From the IMG/VR virus record IMGVR_UViG_648276650_000002, positions 1-23,198 of that record: a DNA stretch of 23,198 bases; one strand, 5' to 3'. Source of the stretch: a virus. Its lineage: Duplodnaviria > Heunggongvirae > Uroviricota > Caudoviricetes. This document shows positions 11,660 through 17,600 of this stretch, one piece after another. Made by a program: the position numbers. How positions within the stretch are numbered: the stretch's first letter is position 1; every line of letters starts with the position of its first letter.

Positions 11660-14600
11660 GTTTAAGCTTTTCGGTCTGCGATGATGGGTTCCCCGGAGTG
11701 ACTGGAAAGCGACCTGGTTTTGAATGGGCGCTGCTTTTTGCAAAATTGCTGTGTGAAAATACTGACCTTTGGGTTCAGCGCTCATCCAAAAGCATCACGT
11801 GAATTCACCAACGCTCATGTACTCTCCAGGAAACAATAAGTGATTCTGAAAAGTTCCGGTTAGATATTGCCCCGGTCACCGGATGATTTTATCTTTTGGT
11901 TCGTGGTGAATCCCCCTATGCGGCGGGGCGTCCAGTCAAACTTTTTTGTCCAGGTTTGTTTGCGCGGAACTAGTCGGCTGGGGCTGTTCCACCGGGAGGC
12001 ACCCGGCGCCACCTCCTTGACGGTATTGTTATTTTTCATGCCTGTTCGTCCGAGCAGGCTTTTTTTGCCCGCATTATCTTCATTGAAAACTGGCAACTCA
12101 GAGAATCATCCAAATTAAAAAAGCAGCAACGAGAGCGATTACTAATACATTCTTCGCTTTTTCTCTTCTGCTGGCCTTCACAAAAGGATTCACTATCCGG
12201 CAGTGGCTACACACAAGTGATTCTGGGTTAATTAACTTTCCGCAGTAGGGGCAGGGCTTGATAATCATTGGTACTAATTAAGTTGTGAGAACGTAGTCTC
12301 ATTTAACCACATTTATCGAGTTGTTTTACTAATGGTCTAGTTATTTCAGACATATTCATCAATTTCAGGCTCACGGGAATCATCCGCTACGTGCTTTGTT
12401 GATAAATCCAGCCCGTGAAGCCTGACCCTTTTCAAACACACACACAGCACCATCCGGAAAATCGGAGGTGAGGCCTATGAAAATGCCATACAAACAAGAT
12501 TTCATCGCTGCGCTACTTGCCGCCAAGGAGCAGGGTATTGGTGCAATGCTGGCTTTTATCATGGCGTATCTGCGTGGTCGCTATAACGGCGGCGCGGTAA
12601 CAAAAACGCTAATTGATGCGCTGATGTGCGCGATGATTGCCTGGTTCGTTCGTGACCTTCTGGACTTTATCGGCCTGAGCAGCAACCTCGCCTACATAGC
12701 CAGCGTCTTTATTGGATACATCGGCACCGATTCGATCGGCAATCTTATTAAAAAACTTGCAGCAAAAAAGGCGGGAGTTGACGATGCAAACCAGTCCTGA
12801 CGGAATTGCTCTGATAAAAAAATTTGAAGGTTGTCGGCTGACTGCTTACCCCGACCCCGGAACGGGAGATGCGCCGTGGACCATCGGCTATGGCTGGACC
12901 CATCCGGTTGACGGAAAGCCAGTAAAGCGCGGTATGACTATCGACCAGCAAACCGCTGACAGGCTTCTGAAAACAGGGCTTGTTGGTTATGAGAATGACG
13001 TGCTGAAAGTTGTCAGGGTGAAGCTGACACAAGGCCAGTTCGACGCACTGGTGTCGTTCGCTTACAACGTTGGGTCGCGTGCTCTTTCCACATCTACACT
13101 GCTGAAAAAGCTGAATGCTGGCGATATAAAAGGCGCGGCAGATGAATTTCTGCGCTGGAATAAATCAGGCGGAAAGGTGATGCCGGGGCTCACGAATCGC
13201 CGCAAGGCAGAGCGAGCTCTGTTCCTGTCATGATTAGCGCACTGGTTAAGCGTTACTGGCTGCAGTTGCTGGTGCTGGCGTTAATCGGCGCACTGGCTTT
13301 CTTCGTGAACCACTACCGCGACAACGCCATCACTTACAGAGACCAGCGCGATAAAGCCACAAAGAACCTCCGCCTGGCTAATGCCACCATCAAAGATATG
13401 CAGACCCGCCAGCGTGATGTCGCTGCACTGGATGCCAAATACACGAAGGAATTGTCCGATGCGAAAAAGACCATTAACGATTTGCGTCGTGATGTCGATT
13501 CTGGCGCTAAACGGCTGCGCATCGCCGCAACCTGCCCTGGAGTGCCAAAAGCCACCTCCTCCACCGGCGTGGATGATGCAGGAGTCCCCGAACTTACTCC
13601 AGACGCTCGACGGAATTATTTCGATCACCGGGACGGAATCGCAACCGCTGACAAAATGATTCGCGGCATGCAGGACTACATCAAAGAGCAGTGTCTTAAG
13701 TGATTCGTCACCCAAATAACAGAGCCTGACTTCGGTCGGGCTTTTTTATTCCCAGAAGAAGCAGGAGAAGAAGCATGTTAACAGTAAAAGTAATGTCGCC
13801 AGGTGGCGGTGAAGAGATTCATTGCGGGTTGAGTGTAGGGTTCAATCCGGGGCAGCAGAGCATCGCGGTATCGGGAATGGACAAAAATGTATTCCTGAAA
13901 CCTGGCGAGGTCGCCTACGTGATGAACCAGAACGGGAAGACGGTATCTCGTTACGAGCATAATGACCGCCAGTAGCCATTCCAAAGCTCACCTGCTGGTG
14001 GGCTTGATAATGGATATCCCCCTGAGCGGATAAATCAAAAATAACCCCTGCAACGGATAATGACGGAGCAACAGATGGCAAAAGCCAAATGGCACAGACT
14101 TCCGGCATTCACCATTCCGCCAGGTGACGCAGCCAGAATTGTTGATTGGCTGATCGCGGCATTACAGCAGGCATTCACTGAGTGCCTGTGATAATGCAAC
14201 AGCCCGTACAAAACGGGCTTGGATTTATCTCTTTGTTGCGTTCATGGTCACATGGTAAACGAATTGGCTAAATTGGTTATCCCAGCGCCCATTATGATTA
14301 GCTGCAACTAATTGCATTAACGCCTGCATTAACTTGCTGAACAGCAAGATTAACTTAAGTCTGTTTTTTGAACTGTCACTATCTAAGGAAACTTCTTCGG
14401 TTAATTGATTCTCGGCGTTAAAAATACCCAGTTTTGATTCTTCCATGCTGGGTTCCGTTGGATGCTGTTTAAAGTATTCAGTCAGAGTATCCGTCAGGCT
14501 CTGGATCCTTGAATCAGCAATGCTTTGTATTGATGGATTGTGTGCAAGGTCATTACGCATTGAGTTGATGGTTTTAAGTGATTTCATAAGTTCCGTGGGG

Positions 14601-17600
14601 ATTCCCAGGTTTCCCGCCATGGATATTTTAGTATTACATTCGATTAAAAGTTTGTTTTTATCTCTTCCAAAGAGATCTTGGCAGTCACAGCATGCGCATA
14701 TCCATGCTTCGACCATGCGCTCACAAAGTAGGTGAATGCGCAATGTAGTACCCACATCGTCATCGCTTTCCACTGCTCTCGCGAATAAAGATGGAAAATC
14801 AATCTCATGGTAATAGTCCATGAAAATCCTTGTATTCATAAATCCTCCAGGTAGCTATATGCAAATTGAAACAAAAGAGATGGTGATCTTTCTAAGAGAT
14901 GATGGAATCTCCCTTCAGTATCCCGATGGTCAATGCGCTGGATATGGGATAGATGGGAATATGCTGATTTTTATGGGACAGAGTTGCGAACTGTTCCCAA
15001 CTAAAATCATTTTGCACGATCAGCGCACTACGAACTTTACCCACAAATAGTCAGGTAATGAATCCTGATATAAAGACAGGTTGATAAATCAGTCTTCTAC
15101 GCGCATCGCACGCGCACATCAAAGAGAGTCTTTCAGTAGTGAGCCTGGGTGATGCCGTTAGGTTGCGTTTACCTCTCGGGCGGCATTGCCGTGCGACAGG
15201 CTCACGCCTAAAAGGAAATATTCCATGAGTAACAAAATCATTACGCTATCTGGCGCTGCTAATGAAGTGCTTTATGCGCTGTTTTTCCGTGGCGCGTTGC
15301 TGTCTGGTGATCTGCCTTCTAAATCTGGCACAGCCGAATTGCGCGAGCTTGGTTTTGCTGAAACCAGACACACAGCAACTGAATACCAGAAAGAAAATCA
15401 CTTTACCTTTCTGACATCAGAAGGGCAGAAATTTGCCGTTGAACACCTGGTCAATACGCGTTTTGGTGAGCAGCAATATTGCGCTTCGATGACGCTTGGC
15501 GTTGAGATTGATACCTCTGCTGCACAAAAGGCAATCGACGAGCTGGACCAGCGCATTCGTGACACCGTCTCCTTCGAACTTATTCGCAATGGAGTGTCAT
15601 TCATCAAGGACGCCGCTATCGCAAATGGTACTATCCACGCAGCGGCAATCGAAACACCTCAGCCGGTGACCAATATCTACAACATCAGCCTTGGTATCCA
15701 GCGTGATGAGCCAGCGCAGAACAAGGTAACCGTCAGTGCCGATAAGTTCAAAGTTAAACCTGGTGTTGATACCAACATTGAAACGTTGATCGAAAACGCG
15801 CTGAAAAACGCTGCTGAATGTGCGGCGCTGGATGTCACAAAGCAAATGGCAGCAGACAAGAAAGCGATGGATGAACTGGCTTCCTATGTCCGCACGGCCA
15901 TCATGATGGAATGTTTCCCCGGTGGTGTTATCTGGCAGCAGTGCCGTCGATAGTGTGCAATTGATAATTATTATCGTTTGCGGGTCCTTTCCGGCGATCC
16001 GCCTTGTTACGGGGCGGCGTCCGCGCAGATTCTCGCTATTTATGAAAATTTTCAGGCATTTGCCGTTTCCGTTCTTCTTCTCGCTAATTCATTGTTTTAA
16101 CTGTAAACACCCCCTGAAAAGAAAGGAAATGATAAGCCTTAAAAACGGCTAAATAGCCAGAGGGCGTTTCCTTTCTCTGTTTTTGTGTATGGAGTGAGCT
16201 ATGGAGGTCAACAAAAAGCGTCTTTCTGAAATATTTGGGGTCAGCGTGCGAACCATTCAGAACTGGCAGGATCAGGGAATGCCTGTAGCACGTGGCGGTG
16301 GAAAAGGTAATGAGGTCCTCTATGAATCTTCCGCGGCTATCGAATGGTATTCCGCACGCGACGCGGCGATTGAGAATGAGAAATTACGGAAGGAGGTGGA
16401 AGACCTTCGTCTTGCATCGGAATCCGACCTTCAGCCTGGTACGATTGACTATGAGCGTCACCGCCTCACCCGAGCGCAGGCAGATGCCCAGGAACTAAAA
16501 AATGCAAAAGATTCCGCTGAGGTGGTGGAAACCGCATTCTGCACGTTCGTGCTGTCGCGGATGGCCGGAGAAGTAGCCAGCATTCTTGATGGAGTTCCTC
16601 TGTCGGTTCAGCGGCGCTTCCCGGAGCTGGAAAACCGACATATTGATTTCCTCAAGAAGGACATCATTAAAGCCATGAACAAAGCAGCTGCGCTGGATGA
16701 AATAATACCGGGGTTGCTGAGTGAATATATCGAACAGTCAGGTTAAGGGGCTGCAGCACTCTGCGCGCGCGGGTCTACTTTCGCTGTACCGACCTGAGCC
16801 GCAAACGGCGGTTGAATGGGCAGACGATAATTACTATCTCCCCAAAGAGTCGGCCTACCAGGAAGGGCGCTGGGAAACGTTGCCGTTTCAACGCGCGATC
16901 ATGAATGCGATGGGTAACGATTACATACGTGAGGTCAACGTTGTTAAGTCTGCCCGTGTTGGCTATTCAAAAATGTTGCTGGGTGTTTATGCGTATTTTA
17001 TTCAGCACAAGCAGCGAAATTCCCTTATCTGGCTGCCTACTGATGGTGACGCCGAAAACTTTATGAAGTCGCATGTTGAGCCGACGATTCGCGATATTCC
17101 GTCACTTCTGGCGCTGGCCCCCTGGTATGGAAAAAAGCACCGGGACAATACGCTCAGTATGAAACGCTTCTCCAACGGTCGCGGGTTCTGGTGTCTGGGT
17201 GGTAAAGCGGCGAAAAACTATCGTGAGAAATCGGTCGATGTCGCCGGTTACGATGAACTGGCGGCATTCGATGAAGATATTGAGAAAGAGGGATCCCCGA
17301 CGTTCCTGGGTGATAAACGTATTGAGGGGTCTGTCTGGCCCAAATCTATTCGCGGCTCAACGCCAAAAACAAAGGGGACCTGCCAGATTGAGCGTGCTGC
17401 CAGCGAGTCCGGGCATTTCATGCGTTTTCATGTTGCCTGTCCGCACTGTGGTGAAGAGCAGTACCTTAAATTCGGCGACAAAGAGACCCCGTTCGGGCTG
17501 AAATGGACACCGGGCGAACCCTCCAGCGTCTTTTACCTGTGTGAACATAATGCCTGCGTCATTAAGCAGCAGGAGCTGGATTTCACTGAAGCTCGTTACA

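Follow-up and report, generated by a model that had tools for sequence, protein, structure and literature searches.

A copy of the phi80 TaiEcA-AtiEcA module in a lambdoid phage segment and the distant relationship of Tai to the HEPN nuclease HepS

The stretch of DNA analysed here (IMG/VR virus record IMGVR_UViG_648276650_000002, positions 1 to 23,198; 23,198 nucleotides, hereafter the window) is a segment of a lambdoid phage or prophage. Between its lysis gene Rz and cos lies an AT-rich island with a gene of 204 amino acids (aa) on the minus strand and several small open reading frames (ORFs). From the short motif RNDLAH, the original prediction had proposed a HEPN-type RNase, as found in abortive-infection and toxin proteins, with any of the small ORFs as possible partner or antitoxin. 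The locus raises the question of what this gene is, whether its product belongs to HEPN and which neighbour, if any, acts together with it. The island, the ORFs and the motif were all found at the coordinates proposed. In our assessment it is very probable that the island represents the TaiEcA-AtiEcA module known from phage phi80, in which Tai would be a HEPN protein that senses the tail fibre protein J and probably cleaves RNA, with Ati as its inhibitor.

The AT-rich island and the phi80 tai-ati pair

The 204-aa protein shows 99% identity over 204 aa to gp52 of phi80, from which it differs in 2 of 204 residues. In the phi80 record, gp52 is annotated as "hypothetical protein" (JX871397, 44365-44979, minus strand; protein accessions YP_007947985 / WP_000993911). 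Table S3 of He et al. 2024 (Nat Commun, PMC11364771) gives the phi80 gene at these coordinates the name TaiEcA ("tail assembly inhibition") and its divergent neighbour orf64 is AtiEcA, the counter-defence gene. The small divergent ORF of the window is 100% identical to this neighbour (gp51/orf64, annotated as "putative Fur-regulated protein"), which in phi80 is followed by gp49 (N15 gp59-like) and then cosQ. Identities published for other members of the two families agree with the matches found here (TaiSalB 74%, TaiYerA 47%; Ati 71% and 35-40%). Judged from these sequence identities, the island is a near-identical copy of the TaiEcA-AtiEcA module found in phi80, and the gene pair is already known. 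The suspected role of the 204-aa protein as an anti-phage defence protein is thereby borne out by the published work on TaiEcA. The module comprises the following features.

14225-14839, minus strand: taiEcA-type gene, 204 aa, HEPN-fold defence protein, antisense to the late operon
14540-14557, minus strand: codons for RNDLAH (R95-H100), the HEPN R-x4-H motif
14840-14858, unstranded: spacer of 19 nt between the tai and ati start codons, read from the sequence
14859-15050, plus strand: atiEcA-type gene, 63 aa from the ATG at 14859 (76 aa from 14820), in the direction of the late operon

The G + C content is 0.40-0.42 across approximately 14150-15050 and 0.50-0.55 in both flanks. Positions 14121-15149 match the right end of phi80 with 99.2% identity (megablast). 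Homology to phi80 begins at 14121, and upstream of this point the window departs from phi80: rha is replaced by a 66-aa ORF (phrog_3909) and the lysis genes also differ. From 16012 onward the window matches phi80 from its left end (record position 1) with 95% identity, which places cos at approximately 16011/16012. The module thus shares with its phi80 counterpart the position before terS/cos, the divergent antisense layout in a Q-dependent late operon and the AT-rich composition, whereas the surrounding phage is not phi80.

The tai-ati block is also present in Escherichia coli Nissle 1917 (99.7%) and in the phi80dlacZ strains DH5alpha, DH10B, NEB5-alpha and HST04, with identities ranging from 99.2-99.7%. 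Some part of the query is matched by 129 of 5,426 complete E. coli genomes, and the pair is present in approximately 2% of these genomes. Since the pair occurs in common cloning strains and in Nissle 1917, plating of siphophages on such hosts could be affected.

The function of the pair in phi80 has been characterised in detail (PMC11364771). Lysogens of phi80 block the lambdoid siphophages HK106, HK544 and HK578 in a taiEcA-dependent manner. Protection acts at the population level, depends on the multiplicity of infection (MOI) and is abolished by deletion of taiEcA from phi80. Mutations that allow escape lie in the C-terminal part of the central tail fibre J (gp20 in HK106 and HK544). When infection is blocked, the particles released are tailless while phage DNA replicates normally, and at high MOI cells still lyse despite TaiEcA. 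The J C-terminus of phi80 is the same as in sensitive phages, and phi80 needs atiEcA; survivors of a delta-atiEcA phi80 carry transposon insertions in taiEcA, and transfer of atiEcA into HK106 confers immunity. TaiEcA is constitutive in the lysogen and harmless to it. Late Q-dependent transcription includes atiEcA, runs antisense through taiEcA and lowers TaiEcA, a layout termed noncontiguous operon. Five Ati-like partners were found in total, and TaiSalB binds AtiSalB in a two-hybrid assay (PMC11364771).

A comparable arrangement is known from the Tha/Ith system of Staphylococcus aureus prophages (Rostol et al., Nat Microbiol 2024, PMC11087260). Here too, a prophage HEPN defence protein is activated by a tail protein and is neutralised by a small cognate inhibitor, whose gene has the opposite orientation within a noncontiguous operon. 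The sequences are unrelated, however; Tha/Ith resides in the lysogeny module with ith as the antisense gene under a constitutive promoter, and the RNase activity of Tha, which responds to a minor tail protein, is non-specific. Gene orientation alone already pointed to a late-expressed inhibitor of the Ith type in the window. This is confirmed by the experiments on phi80 (PMC11364771) and is hence not new.

The HEPN fold of Tai and its relation to HepS

The motif RNDLAH occupies residues 95-100 of the 204-aa protein. Two alignments were used to evaluate its conservation. Alignment A1 comprises 19 clusters from a large protein collection with at least 47% identity, all from Enterobacteriaceae, and in these R95, N96 and H100 are invariant. 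An exhaustive profile search yielded 211 representatives at E≤1e-3, nearly all of them stand-alone proteins of 170-215 aa. Alignment A2 contains 68 sequences with 27% mean identity, including relatives down to approximately 20% identity; N96 and H100 are still invariant, while R95, H36, E40, K71 and N92 are conserved in at least 90%. The experimentally active TaiSalA has RNARSH. A bare R-x4-H is common, but the invariance of N96 and H100, the conservation of R95 in at least 90% and the HEPN fold indicate that RNDLAH is more than a chance occurrence.

Structure prediction had been suggested as a check of the HEPN assignment, along with searches against curated profiles. AlphaFold2 gave a confident model, helical throughout except for a single beta hairpin and a disordered tail at the C-terminus (predicted local distance difference test score 86, predicted template-modelling (TM) score 0.82), and the fold is HEPN-like. 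In a Foldseek search of this model against the PDB, the top four matches were the HepS entries 9OIJ/9OIK, with a probability of 1.0 and TM scores of 0.53-0.56. A single-sequence search of the 204-aa protein against the PDB gave nothing useful, and HepS was reached by family profiles only. A minority of the relatives match HEPN_RiboL-PSP and other HEPN models weakly. The PHROG assignment of the protein is phrog_5483, a family of unknown function.

HepS of the Salmonella prophage Gifsy-1 forms a tetramer and acts in abortive infection as a HEPN anticodon nuclease (Sargen et al., Nature 2026, PMC13043305; PDB 9OIJ/9OIK). It is activated allosterically by residues 902-933 of lambda J, which belong to the central straight fibre of nascent J, with F924 as the key residue. 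Once activated, it cleaves the anticodon loops of tRNA-Thr, tRNA-Ile and tRNA-Ser, for which R100 and H105 are required. Gifsy-1 itself escapes self-triggering via an I-for-F change in its own J (PMC13043305).

The profile of alignment A2 retrieved HepS from the PDB with E=2e-12. An hhalign comparison of A2 with an alignment of the HepS family from viral contigs gave 98.1% and E=8e-14 over 123 columns, and a HepS query matched phrog_5483 with E=1.3e-8. In these comparisons, RNDLAH aligns with R100-H105 of HepS. Profile comparison thus assigns the wider Tai family, TaiEcA included, to the HepS superfamily as distant homologues with a conserved catalytic motif, and by predicted fold and homology the 204-aa protein belongs to HEPN. 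The HEPN assignment, originally drawn from a short motif, is upheld by the AlphaFold2 and Foldseek results, the homology to HepS and the conserved R-N-x3-H.

Both proteins are prophage-encoded, approximately 200 aa in length and share the HEPN fold and R-N-x3-H, HepS being the best structural and profile match of Tai. The parallels extend to the phenotype: a tie to the tail-tip protein J, MOI-dependent protection from siphophages at the population level, intact DNA replication and defective particles. The two nevertheless differ in several respects. Their identity is approximately 15% and they belong to separate PHROGs; HepS is a solo protein with no partner gene beside hepS in Gifsy-1, whereas the Tai clade has the Ati partner and the antisense layout; and only HepS is a proven nuclease.

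Within the Tai clade, variability is highest at residues 116-155, where mean identity is 38% compared to 73% in the core. The disordered C-terminal tail (W186-D-N-x-F-x-Q) is 67% conserved within the clade and is unrelated to the tail of HepS. A variable segment combined with a conserved tail would fit a diversifying sensor surface plus an induced-fit element.

As a further copy of a prophage defence and counter-defence pair that has already been characterised, the locus itself is nothing new. What may be new is the connection of Tai with HepS and HEPN, a modest mechanistic addition found in neither published paper. In PMC11364771 the terms HEPN, nuclease, tRNA and "domain" do not occur, and PMC13043305 never mentions Tai. 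The two papers do not cite each other, and our literature search found no prior report joining Tai and HepS.

Possible mode of action and alternative explanations

By analogy with HepS, we propose that TaiEcA would sense or capture fresh J when a siphophage invades or is co-induced. It would sequester this J and probably also cleave RNA (tRNA) via a composite HEPN active site. AtiEcA, for which a four-stranded beta fold is predicted, would bind Tai and hold it off while the prophage goes through its own lytic cycle. Because of the homology to HepS, the conserved motif and the parallel phenotypes, J-triggered HEPN RNase activity together with J sequestration, with Ati as a protein inhibitor, appears to be the most likely mode of action. 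The more far-reaching version is that Tai and HepS form one superfamily of J-sensing HEPN nucleases, that tail-assembly inhibition results at least partly from J capture and HEPN-dependent tRNA cleavage and that Ati is a small all-beta inhibitor of a HEPN RNase, of a kind not seen before. We put this version forward tentatively and rate its chances slightly below even.

If Tai is indeed a nuclease of the HepS type, the view of Tai as a non-abortive steric blocker of tail assembly needs revision, and Ati becomes a candidate protein inhibitor of HEPN RNases. One sensor-effector fold would then be combined with two solutions for self-immunity, namely a silent J variant in Gifsy-1 and an inhibitor plus antisense transcription in phi80-like phages.

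Several observations weigh against a nuclease of this type. He et al. explain the phenotype as a direct block of tail assembly and set it against abortive infection (PMC11364771). Capsids form and cells lyse, and any translational arrest must therefore be late or partial. The searches with curated profiles gave nothing above threshold: the 204-aa protein has no match in Pfam and NCBIfam, and PADLOC returned only CARF_HEPN with E=0.004, which falls short of its threshold. The alignment with HepS spans Tai residues 15-148 only, so that the N- and C-terminal segments used by HepS to hold its trigger (S13/D15, S202/T203) stay unaligned. Lambda is left unrestricted by TaiEcA (PMC11364771) but is restricted by HepS (PMC13043305), and the recognised epitope therefore differs.

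An alternative close to the view of He et al. is that Tai acts as a purely stoichiometric inhibitor of tail assembly, which binds J and uses the HEPN scaffold only as a platform, so that R-x4-H is catalytically irrelevant. Tailless particles, normal replication of phage DNA, the escape mutations in J and the persistence of lysis at high MOI are all in line with this explanation. On the other hand, the invariance of N96 and H100 and the near-invariance of R95 among 68 relatives with approximately 27% mean identity are difficult to account for unless these residues are needed for catalysis or structure. In addition, HepS, a proven nuclease that needs R100 and H105, shows the same set of phenotypes, and direct binding of Tai to J could not be demonstrated (PMC11364771). 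We consider pure inhibition unlikely, although it is by far the strongest of the alternatives.

The idea of a classic type II toxin-antitoxin addiction pair, in which a constitutively poisonous HEPN toxin is kept in check by a small antitoxin, draws on the tightly linked small partner gene and on the two-hybrid interaction of TaiSalB with AtiSalB. Yet tai and ati are divergent and do not form one operon, and expression of ati is confined to the late phase of the lytic cycle, whereas Tai is present in the lysogen without toxicity. Strains with pBAD-TaiEcA served in plaque assays, so that taiEcA alone is in effect tolerated (PMC11364771). One prophage (L028) has an intact tai beside a frameshifted ati, and the distant relatives in L034 and L035 as well as HepS lack any partner. 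Known HEPN-MNT type II/VII toxin-antitoxin systems differ from the pair in the same sense: an MNT partner was not found beside tai, Ati is not an MNT nucleotidyltransferase, the two genes are not co-transcribed and Tai is non-toxic in lysogens. An addiction pair is thus highly improbable, and the suggestion of a classic antitoxin among the neighbouring ORFs has to be abandoned in view of the harmless constitutive TaiEcA of lysogens and the decayed ati of L028. Even more improbable, to the point of being negligible, is a HEPN-fold transcriptional or regulatory prophage protein of the MtlR/YggD type with no role in defence, since deletion of taiEcA from phi80 abolishes protection (PMC11364771), which refutes this explanation.

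Ati, gene layout and neighbouring features

Of the small ORFs around tai, only the divergent 63/76-aa ORF was retained as a partner, as it corresponds to AtiEcA; the 66-aa and the 38/43-aa ORF do not travel with tai. A member of the ati family lies beside tai in ten loci (L001, L022-L027 and L031-L033), down to approximately 32% Tai identity. The Ati protein family comprises 19 clusters located on the same contigs as the HEPN family. Compared with L023, the synonymous and nonsynonymous differences (pS and pN) of ati are 0.75 and 0.15, respectively, and compared with L024 the ratio of nonsynonymous to synonymous substitution rates (dN/dS) is 0.26. Such ratios indicate that ati is a real gene under purifying selection. 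No ATG corresponding to 14820 is present in the homologues, and the NCBI Prokaryotic Genome Annotation Pipeline (PGAP) gives 63 aa in Nissle, while the phi80 annotation has 76 aa from 14820. The true start of ati is therefore probably 14859. The fold predicted for Ati, a small four-stranded beta structure, gave no informative structural neighbour.

The start codons of tai and ati are back to back and 18-29 nt apart in all loci (including L027, L031 and L033). In the window, the spacer contains the Shine-Dalgarno sequence GGAGG of tai on the minus strand. Such a spacer has no room for a promoter of either gene, and the transcripts of tai and ati must therefore overlap at their 5' ends, which fits the noncontiguous-operon model of PMC11364771. 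A consensus promoter scan did not find a sigma-70-like site for tai or ati. In every context covered, tai is oriented antisense to the phage late genes, and any ati gene present is co-directional with them; the window accordingly has the order lysis genes (plus), tai (minus), ati (plus) and Nu1 (plus). The gap between lysis and terminase genes is the site of tai in the window and in L001, L022-L026, L028, L034 and L035. In L031 it lies between the tail genes M and L, and in L027 and L030 within the tail-tube region.

In the prophage of Enterobacter bugandensis (L028:4507-5000), ati is disrupted by frameshifts and stop codons, and the adjacent tai (P0013, 60% identical) is intact and has kept R-N-x3-H. 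Either self-immunity is no longer needed in this prophage or its own J does not trigger its Tai. The distant relatives in L034 and L035 have no Ati-like partner, and the same is true for hepS of Gifsy-1.

The annotation of the small ORF as "Fur-regulated protein" was not corroborated: no Fur-box-like site with at least 13/19 matches was found near it, nor any supporting literature. The best Fur-box-like site of the window, GCAATTGATAATTATTATC (15957-15975, 15/19 consensus), is located in the cosQ region, 900 nt from the small ORF.

The features that surround the module are as follows.

12468-13703, plus strand: holin, endolysin and Rz with embedded Rz1, from ORF calls and Pfam
13230-13703, plus strand: Rz (Pfam Phage_lysis, E=1.9e-40)
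13775-13975, plus strand: 66-aa ORF, from ORF call
14060-14191, plus strand: 43-aa ORF, or 38 aa from a second ATG at 14075, from ORF call
14156-14219, unstranded: two adjacent hairpins 3' of the tai stop codon, from fold energy
15225-15953, plus strand: 242-aa late gene (phi80 gp49/orf66, N15 gp59-like)
16201-16746, plus strand: Nu1, from ORF call

The endolysin was assigned from the window proteins to Pfam Phage_lysozyme with E=9e-48. The 66-aa ORF has a strong Shine-Dalgarno sequence and follows the terminator hairpin of Rz (13721-13744); its family, phrog_3909, is of unknown function. It is 92% identical to an ORF at the same position relative to tai in the Citrobacter prophages L024-L026. 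As a partner of tai it was rejected, because it occurs only in the window and a single Citrobacter lineage and is missing from phi80, Nissle, L023, L027, L028 and L031. It is probably an independent moron. The 43/38-aa ORF spans the recombination junction at 14121, and only its C-terminal half matches phi80, in a frame different from that of rha. Neither a partner nor an Ldr-like toxin is indicated, as the Pfam match is far below threshold (E=0.07) and the junction-spanning sequence is not conserved as an ORF. Most likely, it is not a gene.

The protein encoded by the 242-aa late gene matches Pfam PF09327, the central-straight-fibre domain of J, with 25 bits (cut-off 22). Residues 1063-1129 of phi80 J align with it in blastp (E=5e-5), and a Phe within the aligned segment corresponds to F924 of lambda J. 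Two genes from TaiSalA, Salmonella phage FSL SP-016 also has a gp59-like gene, which carries a COG4733 tail-component note. No titre defect was reported for an orf66 deletion in phi80 (PMC11364771). As a weaker extension of the proposed mechanism, the 242-aa protein could, from these similarities, be a decoy that titrates Tai- or HepS-type sensors of rival prophages.

A scan of 13600-16300 against Rfam gave only a sub-threshold match to the small RNA isrJ (27 bits compared with a gathering score of 37, E=0.029). This match spans 13675-13745 on the plus strand, where Rz ends and its terminator hairpin lies, and is probably merely the Rz terminator. The hairpin pair at 14156-14219 has a fold energy of -35.9 kcal/mol (z=-5.7), with a U-rich tract after the second hairpin on the plus strand, and is probably a terminator or an RNA-end structure at the edge of the insert. 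A 40-nt sequence within it (14158-14197) recurs with 97.5-100% identity in phages of Klebsiella, Elizabethkingia, Pectobacterium (ZF40) and E. coli (mEp390) that are otherwise unrelated. In mEp390, too, it comes after a small ORF situated downstream of the lysis genes. Combined with the neighbouring GC hairpin (14200-14219) and the U tract, this sequence may represent a shared terminator or module-boundary element.

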